The notes beneath the pieces were generated by a model. That model was not told the origin of the DNA. It saw only the letters and a list, made by a program, of their open reading frames with translations, and did not search any database. The position numbers and the translations under genes are program-made. DNA of 64,000 nt from sequence record PP216085. The stretch is one strand, 5' to 3'. The stretch comes from Escherichia phage vB_EcoM_HZ_ZJUN4. Shown here in pieces: positions 2,874 to 62,388 of this stretch; the first letter of the stretch is position 1, and each line of letters opens with the position of its first letter.

Positions 2874-3782
2874 ATGTTTAAACGTAAATCTACTGCTGAA
2901 CTCGCTGCACAAATGGCTAAACTGGCTGGAAATAAAGGTGGTTTTTCTTCTGAAGATAAAGGCGAGTGGAAACTGAAACTCGACAATGCAGGTAACGGCC
3001 AAGCAGTAATTCGTTTTCTTCCGTCTAAAAATGATGAACAAGCACCATTCGCACTTCTTGTAAATCACGGTTTCAAGAAAAATGGTAAATGGTATATCGA
3101 AACATGCTCATCTACCTACGGTGATTACGATTCTTGTCCAGTATGTCAGTACATCAGTAAAAATGATTTGTATAACACTGACAATAAAGAGTATGGTCTT
3201 GTTAAACGTAAAACTTCTTACTGGGCTAACATTCTTGTAGTAAAAGACCCAGCTGCTCCAGAAAATGAAGGTAAAGTATTTAAATACCGTTTCGGTAAGA
3301 AAATCTGGGATAAAATCAATGCAATGATTGCAGTTGATGTTGAAATGGGTGAAACTCCGGTTGATGTAACTTGTCCGTGGGAAGGTGCTAACTTTGTACT
3401 GAAAGTTAAACAAGTTTCTGGTTTTAGTAACTACGACGAATCTAAATTCCTGAATCAATCTGCGATTCCAAACATTGATGATGAATCTTTCCAGAAAGAA
3501 CTGTTCGAACAAATGGTTGACCTTTCTGAAATGACTTCTAAAGATAAATTCAAATCGTTTGAAGAACTGAGCACTAAGTTCAGTCAAGTTATGGGAACTG
3601 CTGCTATGGGTGGTGCCGCAGCAACTGCCGCTAAGAAAGCTGATAAAGTTGCTGATGATTTGGATGCATTTAATGTTGATGACTTCAAAACAAAAACTGA
3701 AGATGATTTTATGAGCTCAAGCTCTGGCAGTTCATCTAGTGCTGATGACACGGACCTGGATGACCTTTTGAATGACCTTTAA
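2874..3782 (+). CDS. 32: gp32 single-stranded DNA-binding protein, 302 aa
   Basis: [52 protein letters not shown]..., acidic Ser/Asp-rich C-terminus; matches T4 gp32. Confidence 0.97.
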
Positions 3783-3804
3783 TAGATTATATTACTAATT
3801 AATT

Positions 3805-3830
3805 GGGGACCTCTAGGGTCCCCTTTTTTA
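3805..3830 (+). terminator. rho-independent terminator after gene 32
   Basis: GGGGACC-TCTA-GGGTCCCC stem-loop followed by TTTTTT. Confidence 0.75.
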
Positions 3831-3852
3831 TTTCAAAAATTTTCACAAAGTG

Positions 3853-3882
3853 GTTTACAAGCATAAAGCTTTATGGTACTAT
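3853..3882 (+). promoter_or_regulatory. early sigma70-type promoter
   Basis: GTTTACA -35 element, 17 bp spacer containing palindrome CATAAAGCTTTATG, -10 TACTAT. Confidence 0.5.
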
Positions 3883-3928
3883 ACAACTATCGGCAATACT
3901 GCTGATGATGATTAAAGAGGAAAATAAC

Positions 3929-4156
3929 ATGGCTAAAATTGATATTGATGTTGTTGATTTTGAATATATTGAAGAAATTATTCGTAATCGTTATCCTGAA
4001 CTCCGTATTACAAGCGCACTAAATGACCCCAATTGCAATGTTTCAGTTGTTATTGAAGGTCCTTTAAATCGTCTTGAACAATTTATGATTAATGAATATT
4101 GTGACGGTATGGATGCTGAAGATGTAGAATTTTACACAGGATTTATTGAGCAGTAA
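3929..4156 (+). CDS. hypothetical small early protein, 75 aa (frd.3-like position)
   Basis: ATG at 3929 with AAGAGG RBS 8 nt upstream; ORF-track start at 3803 lies inside the gene 32 terminator and upstream of the promoter, so the shorter start is preferred. Confidence 0.55.
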
Positions 4157-4163
4157 TTATTAA

Positions 4164-4179
4164 GGGGCTATCAAGCCCC
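4164..4179 (+). other. intercistronic GC-rich stem-loop
   Basis: GGGGCT-ATCA-AGCCCC hairpin between two small ORFs; no clear U-run. Confidence 0.4.
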
Positions 4180-4200
4180 TATTAAAATGAGGAAAACACA

Positions 4201-4566
4201 ATGTATATCGGTAGAAAATATGAACTTGTTCCAAGACTTATTGATACATTTATTAATTATCGCCCGCGTTCTAATTCATCAATAGTTAAAATTATTCAAG
4301 AAAATGGCGGATGGTTTGAAGTTAAAGAAGCTTTCTTTGCTGATGGATTTAGAGTAATAAAACACATTGAATGCGCTAATGGAAAGCATTTTTACTTCAA
4401 CGTCTGTGAAGACGAATTTCATTGTTTCCGCGAGTATAAAGAACTGACTTCTGAAGAAGATGAAGTCGAAGACAAGGTTTCTGGCGTAACAAAAATTCAC
4501 TGCATTGTAGATGAAAACAATGTAGACGAAATCATTGAACTTTTACGAAAAACTTTCAAAAAGTAG
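4201..4566 (+). CDS. hypothetical early protein, 121 aa
   Basis: ORF with TGAGGA RBS; conserved-position small ORF between 32 and frd. Confidence 0.55.
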   Translation: MYIGRKYELVPRLIDTFINYRPRSNSSIVKIIQENGGWFEVKEAFFADGFRVIKHIECANGKHFYFNVCEDEFHCFREYKELTSEEDEVEDKVSGVTKIHCIVDENNVDEIIELLRKTFKK

Positions 4567-4595
4567 TTTACAGAAGGGTAGTAGTGTGATACTAT
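4566..4595 (+). promoter_or_regulatory. early sigma70-type promoter
   Basis: GTTTACA, spacer with GGGTAGTA/TATTACCC dyad, extended -10 TGTGATACTAT. Confidence 0.5.
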
Positions 4596-4620
4596 TACCC
4601 TATCAACTGAGGAGAATAAA

Positions 4621-4863
4621 ATGAGATTACAACGCCAGAGCATCAAAGATTCAGAAGTTAGAGGTAAATGGTATTTTAATATCATCGGTAAAGATTCTGA
4701 ACTTGTTGAAAAAGCTGAACATCTTTTACGTGATATGGGATGGGAAGATGAATGCGATGGATGTCCTCTTTATGAAGATGGAGAAAGCGCAGGATTCTGG
4801 ATTTACCATTCTGACGTTGAACAGTTTAAAGCTGATTGGAAAATTGTGAAAAAGTCTGTTTAA
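4621..4863 (+). CDS. hypothetical early protein, 80 aa
   Basis: ORF with GAGGAG RBS immediately upstream. Confidence 0.55.
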   Translation: MRLQRQSIKDSEVRGKWYFNIIGKDSELVEKAEHLLRDMGWEDECDGCPLYEDGESAGFWIYHSDVEQFKADWKIVKKSV

Positions 4864-4873
4864 GGAAAATAAT

Positions 4874-5700
<827 letters not shown>

Positions 5701-5720
5701 AATAACGCGTGGCGGAAAAT

Positions 5721-6071
5721 ATGAACTTTAATTATTATCCTATTCTATTAGAAAAAGACGCGAAACAACCAAAATGGCAGGGTCCTCAGTTTATTAAAGG
5801 CGTCTATCAATTAGTAGTTCCCAAAGATAAGATTTATAGCAGCAGTTATTGCACTGAATCCGCTTGCAGTATTTTCGGTAATAGTTCTCCGTATTGGAAT
5901 TTTGATATAAAATTGGATAGAAATATCGATATTTGGTTGAAAGCTATGGATATTGGCAATATCACGTTTGATGAGAATAATTATCATATTATTGGTCGTT
6001 TTTCCAAACGTGGTAAAGAATTATATTTCACTCCTGAAATCGAAAGAAAATTTGATGCTAAACCGTATTGA
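5721..6071 (+). CDS. hypothetical protein, about 116 aa, inserted between frd and td
   Basis: ORF MNFNYYPILLEKDAKQPKWQGPQF... (ORF-track GTG start at 5709; ATG at 5721); no similarity I recognise. Confidence 0.45.
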   Translation: MNFNYYPILLEKDAKQPKWQGPQFIKGVYQLVVPKDKIYSSSYCTESACSIFGNSSPYWNFDIKLDRNIDIWLKAMDIGNITFDENNYHIIGRFSKRGKELYFTPEIERKFDAKPY

Positions 6072-6116: not shown

Positions 6117-6977
6117 ATGAAACAATACCAAGATTTAATTAAAGACATTTTTGAAAATGGCTATGAAACTGATGACCGAACAGGCACAGGAACAATTGCT
6201 TTGTTCGGTACTAAATTACGCTGGGATTTAACTAAAGGTTTTCCTGCAGTAACAACTAAGAAGCTCGCCTGGAAAGCTTGCATTGCTGAGCTACTTTGGT
6301 TTTTATCAGGAAGCACAAATGTCAATGATTTGCGATTAATTCAACATGATTCATTAATTCAAGGCAAAACAGTCTGGGATGAAAATTACGAAAATCAAGC
6401 AAAAGATTTAGGATATCATAGTGGTGAACTTGGTCCAATTTATGGAAAACAGTGGCGTGATTTTGGCGGTGTAGACCAAATTATAGAAGTTATTGATCGT
6501 ATTAAAAAATTGCCAAATGATAGGCGTCAAATTGTTTCAGCATGGAATCCAGCTGAACTTAAACATATGGCATTACCACCTTGTCATATGTTTTATCAGT
6601 TTAATGTGCGTAATGGATATTTGGATTTACAGTGGTATCAAAGAAGTGTTGACGTGTTCTTGGGCTTGCCATTCAACATTGCATCATATGCTGCATTAGT
6701 TCATATTGTAGCTAAGATGTGTAATCTTATTCCAGGAGATTTGATATTTTCTGGCGGTAATACTCATATCTATATGAATCACGTAGAACAATGTAAAGAA
6801 ATTTTGCGTCGTGAACCTAAAGAGCTTTGTGAACTGGTAATAGGCGGATTGCCTTATAAATTCCGCCATCTTTCTACTAAAGAACAATTGGAATATGTTC
6901 TTAAACTCAGGCCTAAAGATTTCGTTCTTAAAGGTTACGAATCACACCCTCCTATTAAAGGAAAAATGGCGGTGTAA
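6117..6977 (+). CDS. td: thymidylate synthase, 286 aa, uninterrupted (no group I intron)
   Basis: MKQYQDLIKDIFENGYETDDRTGTGTIALFG...; continuous 286 aa reading frame including catalytic PCH motif; AAGG RBS. Confidence 0.97.
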   Translation: MKQYQDLIKDIFENGYETDDRTGTGTIALFGTKLRWDLTKGFPAVTTKKLAWKACIAELLWFLSGSTNVNDLRLIQHDSLIQGKTVWDENYENQAKDLGYHSGELGPIYGKQWRDFGGVDQIIEVIDRIKKLPNDRRQIVSAWNPAELKHMALPPCHMFYQFNVRNGYLDLQWYQRSVDVFLGLPFNIASYAALVHIVAKMCNLIPGDLIFSGGNTHIYMNHVEQCKEILRREPKELCELVIGGLPYKFRHLSTKEQLEYVLKLRPKDFVLKGYESHPPIKGKMAV

Positions 6978-7544: not shown

Positions 7545-9799
7545 TTAATGTTATCAAAAGTAGTGGTGTTTCTCAGAGCTTTGACCCGCAAAAAATTATT
7601 AAAGTTTTATCTTGGGCAGCTGAAGGAACATCTGTAGATCCTTATGAATTATATGAAAATATTAAATCATATCTCCGTGATGGAATGACAACTGATGACA
7701 TTCAGACTATTGTCATTAAGGCTGCTGCGAATTCTATTTCAGTTGAAGAGCCTGATTATCAATACGTAGCTGCGCGCTGTTTAATGTTCGCTCTTCGTAA
7801 GCATGTTTACGGGCAATATGAACCGCGTTCATTTATTGACCATATTTCTTACTGTGTAAATGAAGGTAAATACGACCCTGAATTGTTGTCAAAATATTCA
7901 GCAGAAGAAATTACATTTTTAGAATCAAAAATTAAGCACGAGCGGGATATGGAATTTACTTATTCCGGGGCGATGCAATTAAAAGAAAAATATCTCGTTA
8001 AAGATAAAACCACTGGTCAAATTTATGAAACTCCGCAGTTTGCATTTATGACTATTGGAATGGCATTGCATCAAGATGAACCTGTTGACAGATTAAAACA
8101 TGTTATTCGTTTTTATGAAGCAGTATCTACTCGACAGATTTCATTACCAACTCCTATTATGGCTGGATGTCGTACTCCAACTCGGCAGTTTAGTTCATGT
8201 GTTGTTATTGAGGCAGGTGATTCGCTGAAGTCTATCAATAAGGCTTCCGCTTCAATTGTTGAATATATCTCCAAACGCGCTGGAATTGGAATTAACGTTG
8301 GTATGATTCGTGCCGAAGGTTCTAAGATTGGCACAGGTGAAGTGCGTCATACTGGTGTTATTCCTTTTTGGAAACATTTTCAGACTGCTGTTAAATCATG
8401 TTCACAGGGCGGAATTCGTGGCGGCGCTGCTACTGCTTATTATCCTATTTGGCATTTGGAAGTTGAAAATCTTCTCGTTTTGAAAAATAACAAAGGTGTA
8501 GAAGAAAACCGTATCCGTCATATGGATTATGGTGTTCAGCTGAATGATTTGATGATGGAACGATTCGGAAAGAACGATTACATTACTTTATTCAGTCCGC
8601 ATGAAATGGGTGGCGAGCTTTATTATTCTTATTTTAAAGACCAAGACCGTTTCCGCGAATTATACGAAGCAGCAGAAAAAGACCCTAATATTCGCAAAAA
8701 GCGTATTAAAGCCCGTGAACTATTTGAATTACTCATGACTGAACGATCAGGAACAGCAAGGATTTATGTACAGTTCATTGATAATACGAATAACTATACT
8801 CCGTTTATTCGTGAAAAGGCACCTATTCGTCAGAGTAACTTGTGTTGTGAAATTGCTATTCCAACAAATGATGTGAATAGTCCTGATGCTGAAATTGGAT
8901 TGTGTACGTTATCTGCATTTGTGTTGGATAACTTCGATTGGCAAGACCAAGATAAAATTAATGAATTAGCAGAAGTTCAAGTTCGCGCTCTTGATAATCT
9001 TTTGGATTACCAAGGATATCCAGTTCCTGAAGCAGAAAAAGCTAAAAAGCGTCGAAACCTTGGCGTAGGTGTTACTAACTATGCAGCTTGGCTGGCAAGT
9101 AACTTTGCTTCTTATGAAGATGCTAACGATTTAACACATGAACTATTTGAGAGATTACAGTATGGACTCATTAAAGCATCCATTAAACTCGCCAAAGAAA
9201 AAGGACCTTGCGAGTATTATTCAGACACTCGTTGGTCTCGAGGCGAATTACCTATCGACTGGTACAATAAAAAGATTGACCAAATCGCAGCTCCAAAATA
9301 CGTTTGTGACTGGTCGTCGCTGCGGGAAGACCTTAAGCTCTTTGGCATCCGTAATAGCACATTATCAGCACTTATGCCATGTGAGTCATCTTCCCAAGTT
9401 TCTAACAGTACAAACGGTATCGAGCCTCCACGTGGACCAGTCTCTGTTAAAGAATCAAAAGAGGGTTCCTTTAATCAAGTCGTGCCCAATATTGAGCATA
9501 ACATAGACCTCTATGATTATACGTGGAAATTAGCTAAGAAAGGCAATAAACCTTATCTTACGCAGGTAGCTATTATGCTGAAATGGGTATGTCAATCAGC
9601 TTCAGCGAATACATATTATGACCCGCAGATTTTTCCAAAAGGAAAGGTTCCAATGTCTGTAATGATTGATGACATGCTATACGGATGGTATTATGGCATT
9701 AAAAACTTCTATTATCATAATACTCGTGATGGTTCCGGTACTGATGATTACGAAATAGAAACTCCAAAAGCTGAAGATTGTTCATCCTGTAAATTATGA
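7535..9799 (+). CDS. nrdA: ribonucleotide reductase large subunit, 754 aa
   Basis: 754 aa; N-terminal ATP-cone-like region, catalytic Cys-containing motifs (NLCCEI, PCESS), C-terminal CSSCKL; matches T4 NrdA. Confidence 0.97.
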   Translation: MQLINVIKSSGVSQSFDPQKIIKVLSWAAEGTSVDPYELYENIKSYLRDGMTTDDIQTIVIKAAANSISVEEPDYQYVAARCLMFALRKHVYGQYEPRSFIDHISYCVNEGKYDPELLSKYSAEEITFLESKIKHERDMEFTYSGAMQLKEKYLVKDKTTGQIYETPQFAFMTIGMALHQDEPVDRLKHVIRFYEAVSTRQISLPTPIMAGCRTPTRQFSSCVVIEAGDSLKSINKASASIVEYISKRAGIGINVGMIRAEGSKIGTGEVRHTGVIPFWKHFQTAVKSCSQGGIRGGAATAYYPIWHLEVENLLVLKNNKGVEENRIRHMDYGVQLNDLMMERFGKNDYITLFSPHEMGGELYYSYFKDQDRFRELYEAAEKDPNIRKKRIKARELFELLMTERSGTARIYVQFIDNTNNYTPFIREKAPIRQSNLCCEIAIPTNDVNSPDAEIGLCTLSAFVLDNFDWQDQDKINELAEVQVRALDNLLDYQGYPVPEAEKAKKRRNLGVGVTNYAAWLASNFASYEDANDLTHELFERLQYGLIKASIKLAKEKGPCEYYSDTRWSRGELPIDWYNKKIDQIAAPKYVCDWSSLREDLKLFGIRNSTLSALMPCESSSQVSNSTNGIEPPRGPVSVKESKEGSFNQVVPNIEHNIDLYDYTWKLAKKGNKPYLTQVAIMLKWVCQSASANTYYDPQIFPKGKVPMSVMIDDMLYGWYYGIKNFYYHNTRDGSGTDDYEIETPKAEDCSSCKL

Positions 9800-9850
9800 T
9801 ATAATTTGACTCACGGACGAGTCACTATCTATTAACTAAGCGGAAAATTT

Positions 9851-11029
9851 ATGAGCACAGTTTTTAATACAAATCCAGTTGATGTTTTAAAAGAACCTAT
9901 GTTCTTCGGTTCAGGTCTTGGTATTGCGCGTTATGATATTCAACGTCATAAAGTTTTTGAAGATTTAACTGAAAAGCAGTTGTCATTTTTCTGGCGTCCT
10001 GAAGAAGTAAACTTGATGATGGATGCTGCACAATTTAACAAGCTTCCTCAGTATCAACAAGATATTTTTACTAATAACCTGAAGTATCAATCACTTCTAG
10101 ATAGCATTCAGGGTCGTGCACCGTCTGCTGTACTTATGTCGTTAATTTCAGACCCAAGTCTTGATACATGGGTTGCTACATGGACTTTTAGTGAAACTAT
10201 TCACAGTCGTTCATATACTCATATCATGCGAAATCTTTATACTGATCCATCGAAGGTATTTGATGAGATTGTACTAGATGAAGCTATCATGAAACGTGCT
10301 GAATCTATCGGTCGCTATTATGATGATGTTCTGACTAAAACCCGTGAATGGGAAAATGCTAAAGAATTTACAGAACTAGCTAAAGAATCTCCTGATGCTG
10401 TTTTTCGTTTAAATCGAGCTATTAAACAAGAAGCCGAAGCTAAACGAGCACTAATGAAATCTCTTTACCTCTGTTTGCACGTTATTAATGCCTTAGAAGC
10501 TATTCGTTTTTATGTATCTTTTGCATGTACCTTTAACTTCCATAAGAACATGGAAATCATGGAAGGTAATGCCAAGATTATGAAGTTCATTGCACGTGAT
10601 GAGCAGCTTCACCTTAAAGGCACCCAATATATTATTCGTCAACTTCAATCCGGTACTGATGGCGATGAATGGGTTAAAATTGCTCAAGAGTGTGAACAAG
10701 AAGCAGTTGATATTTTCATGGAAGTTAACCGCCAAGAAAAAGATTGGGCAGTTCATTTATTTAAAGATGGCGATGTTCCTGGATTAAATACAAATAGCAT
10801 GTGGAGCTTTATTGATTACTTAACTGTATCTCGTATGAAACAGTGCGGTCTTCCATGCCCAATTACCGATGCTCCGGTTAAACATCCATATCCTTGGATT
10901 CGTGAATATCTTAATTCTGATAATGTTCAATCCGCGCCACAAGAAGTAGAACTGTCATCTTACCTTGTTGCACAGATTGATAATGATGTTGATGATAAAG
11001 TTATGATGAGTTTTAAAAAATACTTTTAA
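9851..11029 (+). CDS. nrdB: ribonucleotide reductase small subunit, 392 aa, uninterrupted
   Basis: 392 aa continuous ORF MSTVFNTNPVDVLKEPMFFGSG...; ferritin-like di-iron ligand motifs; no intron. Confidence 0.96.
   Translation: MSTVFNTNPVDVLKEPMFFGSGLGIARYDIQRHKVFEDLTEKQLSFFWRPEEVNLMMDAAQFNKLPQYQQDIFTNNLKYQSLLDSIQGRAPSAVLMSLISDPSLDTWVATWTFSETIHSRSYTHIMRNLYTDPSKVFDEIVLDEAIMKRAESIGRYYDDVLTKTREWENAKEFTELAKESPDAVFRLNRAIKQEAEAKRALMKSLYLCLHVINALEAIRFYVSFACTFNFHKNMEIMEGNAKIMKFIARDEQLHLKGTQYIIRQLQSGTDGDEWVKIAQECEQEAVDIFMEVNRQEKDWAVHLFKDGDVPGLNTNSMWSFIDYLTVSRMKQCGLPCPITDAPVKHPYPWIREYLNSDNVQSAPQEVELSSYLVAQIDNDVDDKVMMSFKKYF

Positions 11030-14075: not shown

Positions 14076-14079
<4 letters not shown>
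13843..14079 (+). CDS. hypothetical protein, 78 aa
   Basis: ORF overlapping neighbours in operon-like arrangement. Confidence 0.5.
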
Positions 14080-15283
<1,204 letters not shown>

Positions 15284-21600: not shown

Positions 21601-23060
21601 TGATTCTTAAAATTCTGAATGAAATAGCATCTATTGGTTCAACTAAGCAGAAGCAAGCAATTCTTGAAAAGAATAAAGATAATGAATTGCTTAAACGAGT
21701 ATATCGTCTGACTTATTCTCGTGGGTTACAGTATTATATCAAGAAATGGCCTAAACCTGGTATTGCTACCCAGAGTTTTGGAATGCTGACTATTACCGAT
21801 ATGCTTGACTTCATTGAATTCACGTTAGCTACTCGGAAATTGACTGGAAATGCTGCAATTGAGGAATTAACTGGATATATCACCGATGGTAAAAAGGATG
21901 ATGTTGAAGTTTTGCGTCGAGTTATGATGCGAGACCTTGAATGCGGTGCTTCAGTATCTATTGCAAACAAAGTTTGGCCAGGTTTAATTCCTGAACAACC
22001 TCAAATGCTGGCAAGTTCTTATGATGAAAAAGGCATTAGTAAGAATATCAAGTTTCCAGCCTTTGCGCAGTTAAAAGCAGATGGAGCTCGGTGTTTTGCT
22101 GAAGTCCGAGGCGATGAATTAGATGATGTTCGTCTTTTATCACGAGCTGGTAATGAATATCTAGGATTAGATCTTCTTAAGGAAGAGTTAATCAAAATGA
22201 CTGCTGAAGCCCGCCAGATTCATCCAGAAGGTGTGTTAATTGATGGCGAATTGGTATACCATGAGCAAGTTGAAAAGGAACCAGAAGGCCTAGATTTTCT
22301 TTTTGATGCTCCTGAAATCAGTAAAGCTAAAGAGTTTGCCGAAGTAGCTGAATCTCGTACTGCTTCTAATGGAATCGCCAATAAATCTTTAAAGGGAACT
22401 ATTTCAGAAAAAGAAGCCCAATGCATGAAGTTTCAGGTCTGGGATTATGTTCCGTTAGTAGAAATATACGGTCTTCCGGCGTTTCGTTTAAAATATGATG
22501 TACGTTTTTCTAAACTAGAACAAATGACATCAGGATATGATAAAGTAATTTTAATTGAAAACCAGGTAGTAAATAACCTAGATGAAGCTAAGGTAATTTA
22601 TAAAAAATATATTGACCAGGGTCTTGAAGGTATTATTCTCAAAAATACCGATGGATTGTGGGAAAATGCTCGTTCAAAAAATCTCTATAAATTTAAAGAA
22701 GTAATTGATGTTGATTTAAAAATTGTAGGAATTTATCCTCACCGTAAAGACCCTACTAAAGCGGGTGGATTTATTCTTGAATCAGAGTGTGGAAAAATTA
22801 AAGTAAATGCAGGTTCAGGCTTAAAAGATAAAGCCGGTGTAAAATCACATGAACTTGACCGTACTCGCATTATGGAAAACCAAAATTATTATATTGGAAA
22901 AATTCTAGAGTGCGAATGCAACGGTTGGTTAAAATCTGATGGCCGCACTGATTACGTTAAATTATTTCTTCCGATTGCGATTCGTTTGCGTGAAGATAAA
23001 ACTAAAGCTAATACATTCGAGGATGTATTTGGTGATTTTCATGAGGTAACTGGTCTATGA
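21600..23060 (+). CDS. 30: ATP-dependent DNA ligase, 486 aa
   Basis: MILKILNEIASIGSTKQKQAILEKNKDNELLKRVYRLTY...; adenylation lysine motif region KADGAR; matches T4 DNA ligase. Confidence 0.96.
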   Translation: MILKILNEIASIGSTKQKQAILEKNKDNELLKRVYRLTYSRGLQYYIKKWPKPGIATQSFGMLTITDMLDFIEFTLATRKLTGNAAIEELTGYITDGKKDDVEVLRRVMMRDLECGASVSIANKVWPGLIPEQPQMLASSYDEKGISKNIKFPAFAQLKADGARCFAEVRGDELDDVRLLSRAGNEYLGLDLLKEELIKMTAEARQIHPEGVLIDGELVYHEQVEKEPEGLDFLFDAPEISKAKEFAEVAESRTASNGIANKSLKGTISEKEAQCMKFQVWDYVPLVEIYGLPAFRLKYDVRFSKLEQMTSGYDKVILIENQVVNNLDEAKVIYKKYIDQGLEGIILKNTDGLWENARSKNLYKFKEVIDVDLKIVGIYPHRKDPTKAGGFILESECGKIKVNAGSGLKDKAGVKSHELDRTRIMENQNYYIGKILECECNGWLKSDGRTDYVKLFLPIAIRLREDKTKANTFEDVFGDFHEVTGL

Positions 23061-23245
23061 AAGCTTACTTAGAAACAATTGTCGTGGCTCAAAAAGAAGG
23101 TGGAGATGTTTCTACTTCTGTATCACAAATCGTTCTTGAATTTGTAGATGCATATGCTTATAATAAATTTACAGAAACATTTGATGCCTATGAAAAAGGG
23201 CCAAAGTTTGAAATATACCGTACTCTCTTACCATTAGATTATTAA
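23057..23245 (+). CDS. hypothetical protein, 62 aa
   Basis: ORF coupled to ligase stop. Confidence 0.45.
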   Translation: MKAYLETIVVAQKEGGDVSTSVSQIVLEFVDAYAYNKFTETFDAYEKGPKFEIYRTLLPLDY

Positions 23246-23266
23246 AGGCCTTCGGGCCTTTAATTT
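23244..23266 (+). terminator. rho-independent terminator after ligase operon
   Basis: AAAGGCC-TTCG-GGCCTTT followed by AATTTTA. Confidence 0.6.
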
Positions 23267-23274
23267 TATAAATA
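23267..23274 (+). promoter_or_regulatory. late promoter (TATAAATA) for alt
   Basis: Exact TATAAATA 23 nt upstream of alt ATG. Confidence 0.6.
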
Positions 23275-23297
23275 GAATAAACACTAGAGAGGATATG

Positions 23298-25391
23298 ATG
23301 GAACTCATTACAGAATTATTTGACGAAGATACTACTCTTCCGATTACAAACTTAAATCCAAAGAAGAAAATACCGCAAATTTTTTCAGTTCATGTTGATG
23401 ACGCAATTGAACAACCAGGCTTTCGTTTATGTACCTATACATCTGGAGGTGATACTAACCGTGATCTAAAGATGGGCGATAAAATGATGCACATTGTTCC
23501 TTTTACATTAACTGCTAAAGGTTCAATTGCTAAATTGAAAGGTCTCGGTCCAAGCCCAATTAATTACATCAATTCAGTTTTTACTGTTGCGATGCAAACG
23601 ATGCGTCAGTATAAAATTGATGCCTGCATGCTTCGTATTCTTAAGTCTAAAACTGCCGGTCAAGCTCGACAAATTCAAGTTATTGCTGATAGACTTATCC
23701 GTAGTCGTTCGGGTGGCAGATACGTCCTTCTTAAGGAACTCTGGGATTACGATAAAAAGTATGCATATATTCTTATACATCGCAAAAATGTATCACTAGA
23801 AGACATTCCAGGAGTTCCAGAAATTAGTACCGAGCTCTTTACTAAAGTTGAATCGAAGGTCGGCGATGTTTATATCAATAAAGATACTGGAGCTCAAGTA
23901 ACTAAAAATGAGGCAATTGCAGCATCTATTGCGCAAGAAAATGATAAACGTTCTGACCAAGCTGTAATCGTTAAAGTTAAAATTTCCCGTAGAGCAATTG
24001 CACAAAGTCAGTCATTAGAATCTTCTAGATTTGAAAGTGAATTATTCCAGAAATATGAATCTACCGCAGCTAATTTCAATAAACCTGCTACAGCTCCTTT
24101 AATTCCCGAAGCAGAAGAAATGAAGCTTGGAATTAATTCATTAGCTTCTAAAACTAAGGCAGCAAAAATTATTGCCGAAGGAACCGCAGATGAACTTCAC
24201 TATGACTATAAATTCTTTTCAAAAAGTGAGGTTAATGAAGTTTCTGAAAAAATTAAAGACGTAATTTTTAACGCGATCAAAAATGAACCAACTACTTCAA
24301 TAAAATGTTTAGAGAAGTATGCAGCAGCTATTAATAAATTCTTTGAAGAATATAAAGATACTTGGCTTGATAAACATAATAAAACTCGTAAAGGGCAGTC
24401 AGATGAAGTCTGGGAAGAAATAACTAAAAATTCCTGGAACGCAGCAAAAACTAAATTCCTCAAACGAATGATTTATAGCTTTTCTGGAATTGGTGCAGGT
24501 CCAATGATTGATATTACTATTGCCCGTGATGGTTCTAAATATACTCCATCGCAAAAGCGCGGCATTAGAGAGTATTGTGGATCAGGATATACTGACATCA
24601 ATAATCTTCTTTTAGGCCGCTACAATCCAGAACGATATGATGTAATGAGTGAAAAAGAAATTGAATCTGCGATAAATAATTTAGATTCAGCTTTTGAAAA
24701 TGGTGACCGTATACCAGAAGGCATTACAGTTTATCGTGCTCAAAGTATGACTGCTCCTATATACGAAGCGCTAGTTAAAAATAAAGTGTTCTATTTCAGA
24801 AATTTTGTATCTACTTCTTTAACTCCTATCATTTTTGGACGTTTTGGAATTACACATGCTGGTATCGGTCTTTTAGAACCAGAAGCTCGTAATGAATTAA
24901 CAGTTGATAAAAATGAAGAAGGAATAACTATTAATCCAAACGAAATAAGAGCGTATAAAGAAAATCCTGAATACGTTAAAGTTCAAATAGGATGGGCAAT
25001 TGATGGAGCTCATAAAGTTAATGTTGTATATCCAGGAAGTCTCGGAATAGCAACAGAAGCTGAAGTTATTCTACCACGCGGATTGATGGTCAAAGTTAAT
25101 AAAATAACTGATGCTTCTAATAATGACGGAACAACATCTAATAATACAAAACTCATTCAAGCTGAAGTTATGACTACGGAAGAACTCACCGAATCGGTAA
25201 TTTATGACGGTGACCGTCTAATGGAAACGGGTGAAGTAGTTGCAATGACAGATGATATTGAAATAGAAGACAGAGTTGACTTTGCATCATTTGTTTCATC
25301 AAATGTTAAACAGAAAGCAGAATCATCTCTCGGAATTATTGCGTCTTGCATAGATATTACAAACATGCCTTACAAGTTCGTTCAAGGATAA
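23298..25391 (+). CDS. alt: Alt ADP-ribosyltransferase (capsid-packaged, injected), 697 aa
   Basis: MELITELFDEDTTLPITNLNPKKKIPQIFSVHVDDAIEQPGFRLCTYTSGGDTNRDLKMGDKMMHIV... matches T4 Alt; C-terminal ART triad elements YRAQ, FVSTSL, EAEVILPRG. Confidence 0.93.
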   Translation: MELITELFDEDTTLPITNLNPKKKIPQIFSVHVDDAIEQPGFRLCTYTSGGDTNRDLKMGDKMMHIVPFTLTAKGSIAKLKGLGPSPINYINSVFTVAMQTMRQYKIDACMLRILKSKTAGQARQIQVIADRLIRSRSGGRYVLLKELWDYDKKYAYILIHRKNVSLEDIPGVPEISTELFTKVESKVGDVYINKDTGAQVTKNEAIAASIAQENDKRSDQAVIVKVKISRRAIAQSQSLESSRFESELFQKYESTAANFNKPATAPLIPEAEEMKLGINSLASKTKAAKIIAEGTADELHYDYKFFSKSEVNEVSEKIKDVIFNAIKNEPTTSIKCLEKYAAAINKFFEEYKDTWLDKHNKTRKGQSDEVWEEITKNSWNAAKTKFLKRMIYSFSGIGAGPMIDITIARDGSKYTPSQKRGIREYCGSGYTDINNLLLGRYNPERYDVMSEKEIESAINNLDSAFENGDRIPEGITVYRAQSMTAPIYEALVKNKVFYFRNFVSTSLTPIIFGRFGITHAGIGLLEPEARNELTVDKNEEGITINPNEIRAYKENPEYVKVQIGWAIDGAHKVNVVYPGSLGIATEAEVILPRGLMVKVNKITDASNNDGTTSNNTKLIQAEVMTTEELTESVIYDGDRLMETGEVVAMTDDIEIEDRVDFASFVSSNVKQKAESSLGIIASCIDITNMPYKFVQG

Positions 25392-25394
25392 ATC

Positions 25395-27452
25395 ATGGAA
25401 CTTATTACAGAATTATTTGACGGCGCTTCGGCGCCGGTTGTTAACTTAAATCCTAAGCATAAAATACCTCAAATTTTTGCTATTCAAGCAGGTGAAGAAA
25501 GCGTGCTTCCTGGATTTAGATTTTGTACATACACCTCTGGCGGTGATACAAACAAAAACGTTAAGCCAGGCGATAAAATGATGCATATCGTAATGATAGG
25601 TGTTAATGAGAAACTATCATTAGTTAAACTTAAAAACTTGGGTGGAAATCCAATTGGTGTCATTAATGCGGTTTTTGATACTGCTCTTCAAACAATGAAA
25701 CAGTATAAAATTGACGCATGCCTATTCCGCGTACTAAAGAGTAAAACAAACGGTGCAGCTCGTCAAATGCAAGTTATTGCCGACCGTTTAGTACGTACTA
25801 AAGGAGCAGGTCGATATGTTCTTTTAAAAGAAATCTGGGACTATGATAAGAAATATGCATATATTATGGTTTACCGTAAAAATGCCAATTTAGAAGACAT
25901 TCCAGGTGTACCTCCTATTTCAACTGAGTTATTCACAAAGGTTGAATCAAAGGTTGGTGATGTTTATGTAGATGTTAAAACAGGTAATGCTGTTCCTAAA
26001 GCTGTTGCTGTTGCTGCTTCTATTGCTTTAGAAAATGATAAGCGCACAGATCAAGCTGTTATTCAGAAAACTAAAATTAGTCGTCGATTAGCAGCACAAG
26101 CTCAATATTCTACTGTCGATGCTTCGCTTCAGGGTGATAGCTTCGCTGCTAAGAAATACCAAGAGTTTGAATCTAAAGTTCCGGTATATAAAGCAGAAGG
26201 ACCAATGAACTCCGGCGTTATTCAGGTTGGTTCAAACTTCAGCAAAGGAGCTATCGGTGGTATGAGAAGTGCTTCTCGTTTTAAATCTAATGATTATGAA
26301 CTAGAAAGCTTCCGAAATCATATTGCATTGGCTCATGCACGTTTACGTGATCCATCTATCAAGTTACAGAGCGATATAACATATCAAGGTTCTCAAGAAT
26401 ATTTAAAGAATAAAGAATTTTTTGATTATAAAACTGATAAAATTTTAAGCGATCTTGCTGACATTAATATTTCTAATAGCTTTGATGTTATTAAGAAAAT
26501 TGTCAATGATTTAGTTAAAGGTTCTAAAGCCACGCCAGATGAAAAGGTAGCTATTGTTCAATTTGTCATGAATGGCATTTATAAATTGATTAATGAGTCT
26601 GCTTCTCAAGCGTATGAATATGCAAGTACTGAAGTACCCCCAAAAGGATTAACTCGGGCTGAGTCTGATGTAATTGAAGATTATTGCGCAGATTCATATG
26701 TTGAAATGAACTCGTTCCTTTTAGGTAAACCAGATTCTACTCGTGAAGAATATATGGAACGAGCTATTAAACACATCGAGACAATGGATTCTGCCTTTGC
26801 CAAAGGATCAGTTCTTCCTCCAGGAACTACGCTTTACCGTGGACAAGAAGTTACCTTTAAAACTTTACGTCATAATATTGAAAATAAAATGTTCTATTTC
26901 AAGAACTTCGTATCCACATCGCTTAAACCAAATATCTTCGGTGAGTATGGTAAAAACTATATGGCTCTAGATGATTCTGGTGCAGTATTTTCTGGTGAAG
27001 GAGAAGGTTCAGTTGATGCTGAAGATTTAATGCATATGGGTAGTCACTCTGCTTATGCGAATGAAGATGCTGAAACTAGCGTAGGTATGGTAATTAAAGG
27101 GGCTGAGCGAATTAAAGTTATCGTTCCAGGTCATTTATCAGGATTTCCATCAGAAGCTGAAGTTATTTTACCACGTGGAATTTTGCTGAAGATTAATAAA
27201 GTGAGTACGTACATGATGAAAGAAACTGCTTATAACAAGTATCTAATCGAAGGCACAATCGTTCCTCCTTCTGAACAATTAGAAGAATCGGTATATGATG
27301 GCGATCATCTAATGGAAACTGGTGAAGTTCGTCCAATGGTTGGATTTAATCAATTCCTTGTAGAAGAATCAAAAGAAGAGGAAAACGAAGTTTCTCAAAT
27401 CTTGGCTTCTTTGGTTAACATCAATGAAATGTCTAAAAAGTTCAAGATGTAG
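25395..27452 (+). CDS. second Alt-like ADP-ribosyltransferase paralog, 685 aa
   Basis: Same MELITELFD leader and conserved N-terminal/central block as alt, divergent middle region, retains ART triad elements (YRGQ, FVSTSL, EAEVILPRG); AAGGA RBS 6 nt upstream. Confidence 0.85.
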   Translation: MELITELFDGASAPVVNLNPKHKIPQIFAIQAGEESVLPGFRFCTYTSGGDTNKNVKPGDKMMHIVMIGVNEKLSLVKLKNLGGNPIGVINAVFDTALQTMKQYKIDACLFRVLKSKTNGAARQMQVIADRLVRTKGAGRYVLLKEIWDYDKKYAYIMVYRKNANLEDIPGVPPISTELFTKVESKVGDVYVDVKTGNAVPKAVAVAASIALENDKRTDQAVIQKTKISRRLAAQAQYSTVDASLQGDSFAAKKYQEFESKVPVYKAEGPMNSGVIQVGSNFSKGAIGGMRSASRFKSNDYELESFRNHIALAHARLRDPSIKLQSDITYQGSQEYLKNKEFFDYKTDKILSDLADINISNSFDVIKKIVNDLVKGSKATPDEKVAIVQFVMNGIYKLINESASQAYEYASTEVPPKGLTRAESDVIEDYCADSYVEMNSFLLGKPDSTREEYMERAIKHIETMDSAFAKGSVLPPGTTLYRGQEVTFKTLRHNIENKMFYFKNFVSTSLKPNIFGEYGKNYMALDDSGAVFSGEGEGSVDAEDLMHMGSHSAYANEDAETSVGMVIKGAERIKVIVPGHLSGFPSEAEVILPRGILLKINKVSTYMMKETAYNKYLIEGTIVPPSEQLEESVYDGDHLMETGEVRPMVGFNQFLVEESKEEENEVSQILASLVNINEMSKKFKM

Positions 27453-27506
27453 TTTACAAGTCCCTCGTGTTGTGTTATAATAATCTTACTGACATAACAT
27501 GAGGAA
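27453..27506 (+). promoter_or_regulatory. early promoter plus RBS-sequestering dyad (second copy of the module upstream of alc)
   Basis: GTTTACAAGTCCCTCGTGTTGTGTTATAAT...CTTACTGACATAACATGAGGA; arm pairing includes one G-U wobble relative to the alc copy. Confidence 0.5.
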
Positions 27507-27512
27507 TACAAA

Positions 27513-27803
27513 ATGAAATCTTCTTTGCGCTTTTTAGGTCAAGAACTTGTAGTTGAAGGCGTTATTCCTGCTGATAATGCTTTTAATGAAGCGGTTTACG
27601 ACGAATTTATCAAAATTTTTGGAACAGATAAAAAGTTCGGAATTTTTCCTTCTGAAAATTTTTCAAAGCCAGAACAGACTGAAAGCATTTTCCAGGGTGT
27701 AGTAACAGGTAAATTTGAATCAGAAGCTCCGGTAAAAATTGAAGTTTATATTGAAGACAGTTTAGTTGCTTCAGTTGCTGCTTTTATTTCATTCCGTAAA
27801 TAA
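27513..27803 (+). CDS. hypothetical protein, 96 aa
   Basis: ORF MKSSLRFLGQELVVEGVIPADNAFNEAVYDEF... with GAGGA RBS and own promoter. Confidence 0.55.
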   Translation: MKSSLRFLGQELVVEGVIPADNAFNEAVYDEFIKIFGTDKKFGIFPSENFSKPEQTESIFQGVVTGKFESEAPVKIEVYIEDSLVASVAAFISFRK

Positions 27804-27807
27804 AAAT

Positions 27808-27829
27808 ATGGGGACCTTTCGGTCCCCAT
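27808..27829. terminator. bidirectional terminator between convergent units (gene 54 on - strand, 96-aa ORF on + strand)
   Basis: ATGGGGACC-TTTC-GGTCCCCAT; U-run ATTTTTA on the - strand side. Confidence 0.65.
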
Positions 27830-27831
27830 TG

Positions 27832-28797
27832 TTATATTGCTCCTAATATTTTACTTTGCGAGTTGACAATTCCCGTCATAGTATTAATGTTTGAAATGCT
27901 TCCTGCAGTTCCTCCTAATCTACTAAGTCGTGAAAGCGAATTAGATAGTCCAGTAACACCTCCACTATTTCCGAGAACGCTTTGAATACCGTTTATGGCA
28001 GCAGATTCAAGCCACTCAAGCGCAGCCTGTCTATCAACTGACCCAGCCTGCATGACTCTATACGCAAAAGTAACATCAAATGTAGTTATTTGGTTATCTC
28101 CATCATATGATAACTCAGGAGCGCTCACTGACACTGGAATGCATCCAGTGAACATCACCGCAGTATGAGGTAATCCATTACGAGCATGAAGATTAACCTG
28201 AATATCTGCCTCGACATCTTGTGGCAAAGCGCGCAATCCAGTTACTGGGTCTTGAACAGCGTTAACCCAGTCTTGCATTGCACGATAATTACATGCTTCT
28301 GAATCCATTCTAAATGAAATAACCAAAGGGTCTAATTCTCTCCCAGTTATACGAATATTAGGAGAATTATAGTTCCAGTCAGTTTCATAGGATAATCTAT
28401 TCTCTGGCATTTTTACGGAATATATCATCAATCCAGATGAGTTATATGCCATGTTAAAGAAGTCAATTAAATATGTACCAACTGTAAATGAGCCCAATAA
28501 ACTTTGAACTGTACGTTGACTCATGGCACCAATAAGATATTTACTAACCCCTGATTTTCTTATCAGTTTTTGTGTGCCAGCAGTAATTAGCGTGGTAATT
28601 CCCTGATTAATATCGCCTTGAGTCAATCCTAACCAATCTGAATTTAGGCCCAAGTTATTATAAGAAAAGTTACTAATTGAACTTATCAACGAAGAGCTTT
28701 TAGTTGATGGAGTTGTCGCAAAAACGCAGCTAAACATATTATTACGTTGGAAATCTGCGTTTATTGCTTGATTATTAAATTCCTCTAAAGAATACAT
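27832..28797 (-). CDS. 54: gp54 baseplate tail-tube initiator, 321 aa
   Basis: MYSLEEFNNQAINADFQRNNMFSCVFATTPSTKSS... matches T4 gp54. Confidence 0.93.
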   Translation of the reverse strand: MYSLEEFNNQAINADFQRNNMFSCVFATTPSTKSSSLISSISNFSYNNLGLNSDWLGLTQGDINQGITTLITAGTQKLIRKSGVSKYLIGAMSQRTVQSLLGSFTVGTYLIDFFNMAYNSSGLMIYSVKMPENRLSYETDWNYNSPNIRITGRELDPLVISFRMDSEACNYRAMQDWVNAVQDPVTGLRALPQDVEADIQVNLHARNGLPHTAVMFTGCIPVSVSAPELSYDGDNQITTFDVTFAYRVMQAGSVDRQAALEWLESAAINGIQSVLGNSGGVTGLSNSLSRLSRLGGTAGSISNINTMTGIVNSQSKILGAI

Positions 28798-36363: not shown

Positions 36364-37875
36364 TTATAAATTAACTGTTTTCATTACGTAATTAAATTTT
36401 TCATCTGCGTAGCGCTGAATACGATCAATGCCGTGTTTTAAAAGATAGTTCAAATGAACATATTTCTTTTTCGTATTAGCAGATTTTGGCTTGACGCCAC
36501 AATCATCAATGAGGTCCCAGACCGTTGCGATTGTTTTAGAACCATGCTTACGTAATACACGACCTATTGTTTGCAATACAATAATTTTAGATTTAACACC
36601 GTGCGCTAAAACAACGTGATGCAGATTTTTAACTGAAATACCAGTAGAAAATACACCATAACTAGCTACTATAATTATTCCTTTACCGTTTTCAGCTAAG
36701 GTTTTCATTACATTGCGAGTTTCGGTATCAACTTCCCCCGATACGTAATAAACTTTATCGTATTCATTTTTAATTAAATCGAAAATAGCTTTACCATGTG
36801 ATACATGTTTAAACATGACAAAAGCGTTTTCATCTTTTTGTGCAAGTTTAATAGCTAATTTAGCGATCCATTTATTTCTTTTACTGAGCCCAGTAATAAT
36901 TTTTATTTCTTCTTGGTAAGTTTTTCCCTTTAATTTAGTAGTGAACTCATCAGGATAACGAAGAAAAATACTATTAATTTTTAGCTCAGTTACTTGTCCA
37001 TCTTCCATTAATTTAGAAGTCGTTACTGGCTTAAATATTTCACCAAACATTCCAACATACTGCATGATATTAGCTTTGCCATCACGTAATGAACCTGATA
37101 GACCAAATTTGAACATGCAGTTATTTAAACCTGATATGATAGATGAAATACTTTTTCCTGTGGCAAGATGGCATTCATCATTCATCATCATTCCAAACTG
37201 TGAGAACCATTCTTTTGGTTGTTTTACTACAGTTTGCCATGTACCAACAATTACCGGTGCATCATTTTTATATTTATCATCTTTTGATGCTCCACCACCG
37301 ATTTTCTTTATCATTGCATGACTGAATAAACGATAGTCAACAAAGTCATCAGCCATCTGAGTTGTCAGAGCAGTTGTTGGAACAATGATAAGAATTTTAC
37401 CTTCATAATTTTCCAAATAATAACGTGCAAGCAAAGCTTGAATTAAAGATTTACCTGCGGATGTTGGAAGATTAAGAATTCTACGACGATTAACTAATCC
37501 TTCGAACACTGCATCTTTTTGATACCAGTGTGGTTCAATTCTTTTATTTCCTGAATAGATTTCTAACTTAGAAAGCCATTCATCAAAATCTTTTCTTGAT
37601 AATTCTTCTTTTTCGTTAATTTGCGGGTCAATCCAAGCTTTATAGCCAAAGTTATCGCAGAACTTTTTAATTTGCCCAACTAAGCCGAATGGAAGAAGGC
37701 GATTATAATCTAAAAGACGGATTCGTCCATCCCAGTGACCATATTTGTATTTCGGATTAAAACGATACCCATCAGCTTCAAAGCTAAAGAAATCACGGAG
37801 TTCATGAAATGTACTTTCTTCACAATCAATTCTCACGTGACTAAAATCATAAAAATGTACTTTAATGTCAGTCAT
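36364..37875 (-). CDS. uvsW: UvsW SF2 DNA/RNA helicase, 503 aa
   Basis: Walker A LPTSAGKS, DECH box (MMMNDECHLA), helicase motif VI QTIGRVLR; matches T4 UvsW. Confidence 0.96.
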   Translation of the reverse strand: MTDIKVHFYDFSHVRIDCEESTFHELRDFFSFEADGYRFNPKYKYGHWDGRIRLLDYNRLLPFGLVGQIKKFCDNFGYKAWIDPQINEKEELSRKDFDEWLSKLEIYSGNKRIEPHWYQKDAVFEGLVNRRRILNLPTSAGKSLIQALLARYYLENYEGKILIIVPTTALTTQMADDFVDYRLFSHAMIKKIGGGASKDDKYKNDAPVIVGTWQTVVKQPKEWFSQFGMMMNDECHLATGKSISSIISGLNNCMFKFGLSGSLRDGKANIMQYVGMFGEIFKPVTTSKLMEDGQVTELKINSIFLRYPDEFTTKLKGKTYQEEIKIITGLSKRNKWIAKLAIKLAQKDENAFVMFKHVSHGKAIFDLIKNEYDKVYYVSGEVDTETRNVMKTLAENGKGIIIVASYGVFSTGISVKNLHHVVLAHGVKSKIIVLQTIGRVLRKHGSKTIATVWDLIDDCGVKPKSANTKKKYVHLNYLLKHGIDRIQRYADEKFNYVMKTVNL

Positions 37876-37904
37876 GTCTAAATACCATGTAATAAATATA
37901 TCTA

Positions 37905-42687: not shown

Positions 42688-42718
42688 TGTTTACAGCAAG
42701 GTTATCACATGTTACTAT
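42688..42718 (+). promoter_or_regulatory. early sigma70-type promoter
   Basis: GTTTACA, about 17-18 bp spacer, -10 TACTAT. Confidence 0.45.
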
Positions 42719-42748
42719 AGACCTATCAAAAACATGAGGAGATTAAAA

Positions 42749-43015
42749 ATGAACAAGTTAAACTTTATTCGTACTACTCTGTCCGCTCTTGATAAAGACA
42801 TCAAAGCCCTGGTAGAAAAATATGGTTCCAATCCTAACGGTAATGCAGTGAATGCCCTAGTTAAGAAATATGAAACCATGGCTTATGCTACTGACTTCTG
42901 GTGGAACGGTGAATATTCTACCCATACCAAAGACAAATCTGGTAACTGGCTGAAAATCCAAGAAAATCGTATTGACTTCCGTGACATCATCAACCGTCGA
43001 GTTAAGATTGCGTAG
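42749..43015 (+). CDS. hypothetical protein, 88 aa, in the gene 23-24 intergenic slot
   Basis: MNKLNFIRTTLSALDKDIKALVEKYGSNPNG... with GAGGAG RBS; ORF track starts 5 codons earlier. Confidence 0.5.
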   Translation: MNKLNFIRTTLSALDKDIKALVEKYGSNPNGNAVNALVKKYETMAYATDFWWNGEYSTHTKDKSGNWLKIQENRIDFRDIINRRVKIA

Positions 43016-43028
43016 TATAGAAACAAGA

Positions 43029-43050
43029 ATGGGAGACCGAAGTCTCCCAT
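43029..43050. terminator. stem-loop/terminator downstream of gene 23 (-) and the 88-aa ORF (+)
   Basis: ATGGGAGAC-CGAA-GTCTCCCAT. Confidence 0.5.
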
Positions 43051-43064
43051 AATAAGGTTATATC

Positions 43065-62325: not shown

Positions 62326-62349
62326 AGCGGTTTCCTTATGAGTTTATAG

Positions 62350-62357: not shown

Positions 62358-62365
62358 AAGAAAAA

Positions 62366-62383: not shown

Positions 62384-62388
62384 TTAAT

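Follow-up and report, generated by a model that had tools for sequence, protein, structure and literature searches.

The two-gene alt locus of a T4-like phage and Alt-B, a second Alt-type ADP-ribosyltransferase gene that T4 has lost

The Alt protein of bacteriophage T4 is a component of the prohead core, is present in about 40 copies and is injected into the host together with the DNA; its gene, alt, is non-essential. Mass spectrometry established that gp21 cuts off residues 1-6 (site ITE-6) and the 63 C-terminal residues (site LTE-619) of T4 Alt, leaving an enzyme of 68.2 kDa. Moreover, T4 Alt helps the phage to evade the Mokosh type I defence, a task in which the Alt of phage Bas37 cannot replace it. 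Duplications of alt were noted in genome papers of 2006 (44RR, RB49 and T4's own alt.-1/alt.-2) and of 2014, the latter on ZZ1 (JS98, Bp7, Ac42 and ZZ1), and the T4 record describes alt.-1 and alt.-2 as 'an old duplication of the first part of gene alt'. Here we describe a tandem pair of Alt-type ADP-ribosyltransferase (ART) genes, Alt-A and Alt-B, of Escherichia phage vB_EcoM_HZ_ZJUN4 (record PP216085), located in a stretch of 64,000 nucleotides (nt) that was analysed as a whole and is called the window. This is the normal, two-gene form of the alt locus, and we consider it likely that Alt-B is a second head-packaged, injected arginine ART with targets of its own.

The window is a Tequatrovirus (T4-like) segment, collinear with 150.7-85.5 kb of T4 in reversed orientation, and its alt region is 98% identical to that of phages such as JE01 and PP01. 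In agreement with the first-pass annotation, two intact open reading frames (ORFs) of 697 and 685 amino acids follow each other behind a single predicted late promoter: the stop codon of Alt-A ends at 25391 and the ATG of Alt-B lies at 25395, with a spacer of 3 nt (ATC) between them. The principal features of the pair, in window positions, are the following.

23267-23274, + strand: T4-type late promoter box TATAAATA, by motif match, the sole + strand box upstream of or within the pair.
23298-25391, + strand: Alt-A, orthologue of alt, T6-type allele, 697 amino acids (ORF call, BLASTP, Pfam, phrog_802).
24735-25064, + strand: catalytic residues of Alt-A by motif alignment, namely R480 (24735-24737), S505-T-S507 (24810-24818) and E587-A-E589 (25056-25064).
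25395-27452, + strand: Alt-B (= 'Alt2'), the intact second paralog, 685 amino acids (ORF call and homology).
25395-25412, + strand: N-terminal propeptide MELITE of Alt-B with predicted gp21 site ITE-6, identical to the mapped site of T4 Alt.
25413-26099, + strand: N-domain of Alt-B, residues 7-235, with an alpha/beta fold (precomputed PF26846) and the zone of A::B crossovers.
26100-26639, + strand: all-helical central region of Alt-B, residues 236-415, with a predicted local distance difference test (pLDDT) of 80-92 in the model.
26640-27287, + strand: ART domain of Alt-B, residues 416-631, ending at the predicted gp21 site L-E-E631.
Within 26640-27287, + strand: catalytic residues of Alt-B, namely R482 (26838-26840), S507-T-S509 (26913-26921) and E587-A-E589 (27153-27161), with F584 in the ADP-ribosylating turn-turn (ARTT) loop.
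27288-27449, + strand: predicted C-terminal propeptide of Alt-B, residues 632-685, acidic and disordered in the model (pLDDT <50 from residue 629), aligned to the 63-residue C-propeptide of T4 Alt.

Alt-A is built of the same parts: propeptide 1-6, N-domain 7-238, variable centre 239-415, ART domain 416-632 and C-propeptide 633-697. An extra in-frame ATG at 23295-23297 precedes its MELITE start and would give MMELITE and 698 instead of 697 amino acids. The annotation of Bas37 uses this first ATG (23295), those of T4, T6 and PP01 the second, and the choice between 23295 and 23298 would be without consequence for the mature protein, because residues 1-6 are removed.

Both proteins match the family phrog_802, 'Alt-like RNA polymerase ADP-ribosyltransferase', over their whole length (Alt-A 1-696 at 5e-272, Alt-B 1-685 at 5e-254) and exceed the curated cut-off of 23.4 bits of PF03496 (ADPrib_exo_Tox), Alt-A with 129.2 bits (1.6e-37) and Alt-B with 71.6 bits (7.3e-20). 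Precomputed annotation places PF26846 (Tevenvirinae_ADPRT) on all full-length homologues, while our local Pfam-A scan of the pair gave PF03496 only, the local copy of Pfam-A probably being older than the PF26846 model. The R, STS and ExE motifs are present in both proteins in this order and are invariant in nine orthologues and 23 aligned homologues. Specifically, R480 of Alt-A stands in VYRAQ and R482 of Alt-B in LYRGQ, and the FVSTSL motif occupies residues 503-508 and 505-510, respectively. The retention of the ART catalytic elements in both ORFs, proposed in the first reading of the sequence, is thus borne out, with no loss on alignment, and so is the shared MELITELFD leader with which both begin. 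The ExE rather than QxE signature suggests arginine specificity in the ART family. In the AlphaFold model of Alt-B, built on an alignment of 23 sequences (pLDDT 74.6, predicted template modelling score 0.61), an alpha/beta N-domain at about residues 25-215 is followed by a confident helical region (about 250-470), an ART domain (about 470-625) with the predicted fold of the Alt/VIP2/C3 clade, and a disordered tail from residue 629. No sequence in the PDB matches Alt-B at E <= 0.01, so that a solved structure of an Alt protein is lacking as a guide, and NCBIfam holds no family for either protein. At the level of sequence and predicted fold both proteins show every feature of the Alt/VIP2 R-S-E clade of ARTs and of the T4 Alt-type architecture.

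Alt-B is clearly a functional gene. In nine genomes it always encodes 685 amino acids, without stops and with invariant R482, STS and E587xE589, and the ratio of nonsynonymous to synonymous divergence (dN/dS) among the nine orthologues is 0.039 at a dS of 0.20, and 0.032 in the ART domain. As every one of the nine pairs of orthologues is intact and evolves under purifying selection, the pair consists of real genes and not of chance ORFs. One could still picture Alt-B as a catalytically dead structural or scaffolding protein of the head, or as a decaying duplicate heading towards the state found in T4; its loss from T4 and close relatives and its weaker PF03496 score would fit such a picture. 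The intact reading frames, the invariant catalytic residues and the low dN/dS of the ART domain speak against it, however, as do about 400 records that hold Alt-B at 90% protein identity or above (at least 90%), and we regard this explanation as very improbable.

T4 still contains pieces of this gene. The proteins alt.-1 (NP_049810) and alt.-2 (NP_049809) are near-perfect matches to residues 1-54 and 62-116 of Alt-B, but only about 60% like T4 Alt, and for the PHROG families derived from these two proteins the match is about 1e-40 with Alt-B versus about 1e-21 with Alt-A. DNA alignment with T4 located two lesions. The first is a deletion of 1 nt in a run of A, at about position 25553 of the window, which causes a frameshift; the second is an out-of-frame deletion of 1,700 bp between imperfect direct repeats of 9 bp, whose positions in the window are as follows.

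25733-25741, + strand: left 9-bp repeat CTAAAGAGT, at the left end of the T4 deletion.
27433-27441, + strand: right 9-bp repeat CTAAAAAGT, at the right end of the T4 deletion.

From these matches and the mapped lesions it follows that T4 formerly had a full Alt-B and then lost it. T4 is the exception among its relatives, and its small ORFs are the wreck of Alt-B. The view of T4 as a phage with a single alt therefore holds for intact genes, of which there is one, and has to be amended for alt.-1 and alt.-2, which are remnants of Alt-B.

The pair had been put forward as unusual. Instead, it is the majority state in Tequatrovirus: the 1.7 kb specific to Alt-B were found at 90-99% nucleotide identity in 401 phage records, as against 498 records for the adjoining ligase gene. 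Pairs with these same two gene lengths and the spacer of 3 nt occur in T6, RB18, PP01, HY01, phiD1, UFV-AREG1 and Bas37/KarlGJung, and T2 has Alt-B at 97% protein identity plus a second Alt place. In Bas37, the second gene (bas37_0032) is annotated as 'ADP-ribosyltransferase Alt2', and the equivalent in T6 is EcT6_00197. Alt-A of the window is 98.7% identical to Bas37_0033 and Alt-B 98.4% identical to Bas37_0032; by position, length and an identity of at least 97%, Alt-B is the orthologue of Bas37 Alt2. Its cluster at 90% contains 772 member sequences. Alt-B is thus a known gene, which has been deposited and annotated, bears the name Alt2 and figures in genome papers. The first-pass annotation had weighed whether the second ORF might be a recognised and characterised gene of reference T-even genomes. 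Recognised and present there it is, while no functional study of Alt2, a second alt or an alt paralog was found within the library searched.

The sole experimental data found on Alt-B come from the supplementary material to the HIDEN-SEQ preprint (10.1101/2025.11.20.689424), which reports a Bas37 transposon library on E. coli K-12. In Alt2, 116 of the 164 TA sites were hit, with a mean normalised count of 44.5 and a classification as 'Intermediate'. For Bas37 Alt the same source gives 164 of 179 sites, a mean count of 203.6 and 'Non-essential', and neighbouring non-essential genes have mean counts of 170-395. Alt2 shows no additional effect in strain CFT073 (log2 fold change, log2FC, 0.11), and the authors of the preprint make no comment on it. 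These counts suggest that disruption of Alt2 is not neutral. Strong polarity is unlikely to lie behind them, because insertions in the upstream Alt are well tolerated.

Alt-A and Alt-B are 41% identical over their full length (BLASTP, E = 5e-159). This identity is distributed very unevenly, as the pairwise comparison by segments illustrates.

Identity is 1.00 in the propeptide, 0.67 in the N-domain, 0.61 in the ARTT/ExE segment and 0.50 from the Arg strand to STS. Lower values were obtained for the C-propeptide (0.36), the helical lobe of the ART domain (0.32) and the helical centre (0.18), and the lowest, 0.12, for the insert that separates STS from the ARTT loop.

The strong divergence of the central and catalytic regions noticed at first reading is confirmed by the values for the helical centre and the insert between STS and the ARTT loop. 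The pattern is that of a conserved delivery part joined to a diverged cargo, which fits different substrates without being a proof of them. In addition, at position -3 from the first catalytic Glu, in the ARTT loop, Alt-B has Phe, Alt-A has Ile and T4 Alt has Pro; in C3-like toxins the residue at this position contributes to substrate recognition. The divergence is also old. The ART domains of JS10- and KM16-type Alts, beyond the genus, are 47-57% identical to that of Alt-B versus 37-38% to that of Alt-A, so that the split between A and B is old and B-type ART domains predate the genus; on a more divergent contig, an Alt-B with 74% identity is again the second gene of a tandem pair.

These data bear on whether Alt-B could be a back-up or dosage copy, packaged and active on essentially the substrates of Alt-A, such as RNA polymerase alpha, so that the pair would add no more than dose or robustness. 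Such redundancy would agree with the identical catalytic motifs and the ExE arginine signature of both proteins, with the non-essential nature of T4 alt and with the fact that each effector can be lost in nature, T4 having kept A, and ECML-134 and PST having kept B. Yet the effector parts are only 12-35% identical (0.12-0.35), each lineage being nonetheless under strong purifying selection (dN/dS 0.03-0.06), and the long-term preservation of two different sequences is not expected under pure redundancy. The age of the split, indicated by B-type ART domains beyond the genus, and the different behaviour of Alt and Alt2 in the Bas37 screen argue in the same direction. Moreover, the much closer T4-type and T6-type alleles of Alt-A already differ in function, as the Mokosh type I result illustrates; if alleles with ART domains about 60% identical are functionally different, a paralog about 35% identical probably is as well. 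A merely redundant Alt-B is consequently considered unlikely, and enzymes with different targets remain the preferred explanation. A second host target, perhaps a defence protein, as suggested at first reading, is plausible, and the Mokosh type I result lends it indirect support.

The alt locus also varies in the first gene. Relative to T4 Alt (NP_049811), Alt-A of the window is a mosaic: identity is about 100% over the first 250 residues, but 25-46% in the centre and about 60% in the ART domain, the divergent part (centre plus ART domain) corresponding to positions 24012-25193. Comparison of T6-type with T4-type Alt-A gives a dS of about 0.15 in the first 238 codons, and a dS >1 with a dN of 0.26-0.64 in the centre and ART domain. 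Alt-A has, that is, two old allele classes: the T6 type, of 697 amino acids, in the window, T6, Bas37 and about 354 records, and the T4 type, of 682 amino acids, in T4, G4507, fPS-65 and others. Since G4507 combines a T4-type Alt-A with an intact Alt-B, the type of the allele and the set of paralogs vary independently of each other.

Single, clean switches from A to B were seen in four proteins from metagenomes and in two phages in culture. The six switch points, at residues 43-54, 98-102, 102-110, 147-158, 174-192 and 218-224, all fall in the shared N-domain, and clean switches of this kind mean that the N-domain is interchangeable. ECML-134 and Yersinia phage PST, whose genomes are complete, have an A::B hybrid of 686 amino acids as the only alt gene between alt.1 and alt.-3; its positions are given below.

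2201-4261 of the examined ECML-134 stretch: gene of the 686-amino-acid hybrid.
2201-4261 of the PST stretch: the same hybrid gene.
4001-6061 in a further record: the same hybrid gene.

The hybrids indicate unequal crossing-over between the tandem paralogs. An explanation of the A::B mosaics as assembly artefacts was considered and rejected, as ECML-134, SCS4 and PST, all of them cultured phages with complete genomes, have no alt gene other than the hybrid. The locus therefore exists in at least four states, namely A (T6 type) plus B, A (T4 type) plus B, A (T4 type) plus remnant, and the A::B hybrid alone. Each of the effectors can thus be dispensed with singly, and no genome without both was seen in the sets examined.

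As to delivery, the predicted gp21 sites are ITE-6 and LTE-632 in Alt-A, and ITE-6 and LEE-631 in Alt-B (LKE in PP01), those of Alt-B being kept in nine of nine orthologues. The calculation of mature masses reproduces the published 68.2 kDa for T4 Alt and predicts 70.2 kDa for Alt-A and 69.1 kDa for Alt-B. In the model of Alt-B, disorder sets in at residue 629, the point where the C-propeptide should start. By analogy with T4 Alt, Alt-B would be packaged, trimmed and injected. For the leader, described at first reading as a capsid-targeting peptide processed by the prohead protease, processing is sound in so far as gp21 removes residues 1-6 of T4 Alt; targeting is extrapolated from IPIII, the protein for which the function of the capsid-targeting sequence (CTS) was demonstrated.

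The box TATAAATA ends 23 nt before the ATG at 23298 and 20 nt before that at 23295; it is the only one of its kind on the + strand from 23000 to 27900, and no promoter-like box lies between Alt-A and Alt-B. Window-wide, 17 late boxes were observed versus 9.3 expected. Together with genes 54, 48 and 29 nearby, the promoter motif predicts late transcription beside baseplate genes, as for an Alt-type gene. A predicted transcription from a late promoter only might suit an enzyme that acts late, within the producing cell, on phage or host proteins, or one that stays in the head without being ejected. Indeed, no direct evidence of Alt-B in virions was found in the literature, and the fitness effect in Bas37 appeared during ordinary growth on K-12 and not in a defence-specific condition. 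Against this, every orthologue retains the N-propeptide, the N-domain and the C-terminal gp21 site known from the packaged T4 Alt, an exchange of the N-domain for that of Alt-A is compatible with viable phages, and late expression is exactly what packaging requires (Iyer et al.). We give little credence to such an intracellular or retained enzyme, and packaging followed by injection is the course adopted here.

The following sequence of events can accordingly be proposed. Alt-A and Alt-B would be transcribed late from one promoter. The MELITE propeptide, the N-domain of about 230 residues and the acidic C-propeptide would, as supposed for T4 Alt, take both proteins into the prohead core, where gp21 would trim both ends and release the products of 70.2 and 69.1 kDa. 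The mature enzymes would then enter the host with the injected DNA, and each, with its ExE-type active site, would carry out NAD+-dependent mono-ADP-ribosylation of arginines in host proteins. Given the strong divergence of the helical centre, the STS-ARTT insert and the ARTT loop, the two enzymes most likely differ in the host proteins that they modify, perhaps with some overlap between the two sets. The locus as a whole may behave as a recombining effector cassette, from which either effector can be lost and in which crossovers in the N-domain yield hybrids.

Several points weigh against this proposal. Natural phages survive with the Alt-A effector only (T4) or the Alt-B effector only (ECML-134, PST), and partial redundancy fits these single-effector phages as well as distinct accessory roles do. 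The capsid-targeting role of the propeptide and N-domain of Alt is an extrapolation from IPIII even for T4 Alt. For no phage did the literature searched yield virion proteomics on Alt-B, an assay of its activity or a list of its targets. The low counts of Alt2 in Bas37 could reflect the toxicity of truncated products, a local bias of insertion or an influence on neighbouring genes instead of a loss of function. Finally, the model of Alt-B is of moderate quality and its alignment of 23 sequences is shallow.

A more far-reaching possibility, offered tentatively and with the odds rather against it, is that the target set of Alt-B is distinct from that of Alt and possibly includes a component of defence or stress response, the gene having been overlooked since T4 deleted it. 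The alt locus would then be a polymorphic-effector cassette, in which a constant head-delivery module, made up of the propeptides and the N-domain, is combined with interchangeable ART cargoes (A of the T4 or the T6 type, B, or a hybrid), reshuffled by recombination under the pressure of host defences.

Around the pair, the order on the + strand is gene 30 (DNA ligase), alt.1, Alt-A, Alt-B and alt.-3, and genes 54, 48 and 29 lie downstream of alt.-3 on the minus strand. The neighbouring features are listed below.

23057-23245, + strand: alt.1 orthologue, 62 amino acids, upstream neighbour (PF24647 Phage_blade, 1e-29; named Alt.1 in PP01 and T4).
23244-23261, + strand: hairpin AAAGGCC-TTCG-GGCCTTT followed by a run of T, after alt.1 (sequence reading; G4507 has a terminator annotated at the homologous site).
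27453-27481, + strand: sigma-70-type promoter-like site TTTACA-17-TATAAT with TG extension, ahead of alt.-3 (consensus match, 11/12).
27513-27803, + strand: alt.-3 orthologue, 96 amino acids, DUF5498, downstream neighbour (PF17602, 1.4e-64; annotation of T4 and PP01).
27808-27829, either strand: G+C-rich hairpin between alt.-3 and gene 54, terminator-like on both strands (terminator scan; G4507 has a terminator annotated there).

The hairpin at 23244-23261, read by eye and not listed by a simple terminator scan of the window, is a probable terminator of the upstream early unit. The sigma-70-type promoter match of alt.-3 is strong and starts directly past the stop codon of Alt-B. In T4, C-terminal extension mutations in alt.-3 allow escape from the CmdTAC defence, and in the Bas37 screen the alt.-3 orthologue is conditionally important in E. 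coli CFT073 (log2FC -2.70, adjusted p 0.02; 10.1101/2025.11.20.689424).

Elsewhere in the window, further differences from T4 were recorded. The td intron with I-TevI, mobE with nrdB.1, the nrdB intron, segE and segD of T4 are missing, the sites concerned being 6664-6669, 9795-9851, 10524-10527, 37869-37889 and 42696-43056; segD is replaced by 361 bp with an ORF of 93 amino acids at 42734-43015. These differences in mobile elements are the usual presence/absence variation. Small ORFs stand in stretches without a T4 counterpart at 4874-5119 (81 amino acids, near frd.1), 5709-6071 (120 amino acids, between frd and td) and 14076-14378 (100 amino acids, between pseT.1 and pseT), and a tRNA scan of the window returned no tRNA genes. 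The last 5.8 kb (58199-64000, the region of genes 12 to 8) are 85.6% identical to T4 versus 94-97% elsewhere, and 57761-58198, within the region of the short tail fibre gene 12, does not align with T4; the divergence around gene 12 is probably receptor-binding variation.

In general, the pair is ordinary for its genus and does not constitute a new kind of system. Its interest lies in the fact that nearly all knowledge of injected phage ARTs comes from T4, which lost the second enzyme, while most T-even phages, including those used in therapy and in defence screens, inject or at least encode two diverged ARTs, in addition to having different alleles of Alt-A. As Alt is tied to evasion of Mokosh type I and its alleles are not interchangeable, differences in host range and anti-defence capacity among T2, T4, T6 and the BASEL phages could partly trace to the alt locus. 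An enzyme that is missing from T4 and that most relatives keep under strong selection is thus a useful lead.

Among the described systems, the closest to Alt-A is T4 Alt (gpAlt, NP_049811), an NAD+:arginine mono-ADP-ribosyltransferase encoded at the matching position of the locus and the only one of these proteins with known targets, including RNA polymerase alpha. Both window proteins share with it the full-length architecture (phrog_802), the R, STS and ExE motifs, the ITE-6 and C-terminal LxE sites and a late promoter; Alt-B is a separate paralog, with an overall identity of 41% that comes to about 35% for the ART domain and 8-18% for the helical centre. Alt2 of Bas37 and the equivalents in T6, T2 and RB18 are the same gene as Alt-B, with 97-98% amino acid identity, 685 amino acids, matching spacing and neighbours, and no substantive difference. 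The alt.-1 and alt.-2 of T4 derive from the same source gene, broken in T4 and intact here. Tandem Alt paralogs beside alt are found in 44RR, RB49, JS98, Bp7, Ac42 and ZZ1 as well, but these belong to other genera, are 30-50% identical and include split or partial copies, and the JS10-type Alt possesses a B-like ART domain (57% identical). The bacterial C3, VIP2, iota and Vis toxins are members of the same R-S-E ADP-ribosylating family, with a sequence identity of only 14-27%; they have no counterpart of the N-domain, helical centre or propeptides of the phage proteins, and their delivery is through secretion or binary toxin pores and not from a phage head. ModA and ModB of T4 are also R-S-E ARTs but, unlike Alt, are small, early and not packaged. 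The T4 internal proteins IPI-IPIII resemble Alt in being head-packaged, gp21-trimmed, injected and highly variable among T-even phages, and differ from it in being small basic non-enzymes with a CTS of 10 residues dissimilar to MELITE. Finally, with the polymorphic effector systems the alt locus shares the combination of a constant delivery module and a variable cargo, a likeness that amounts to analogy and not to membership.

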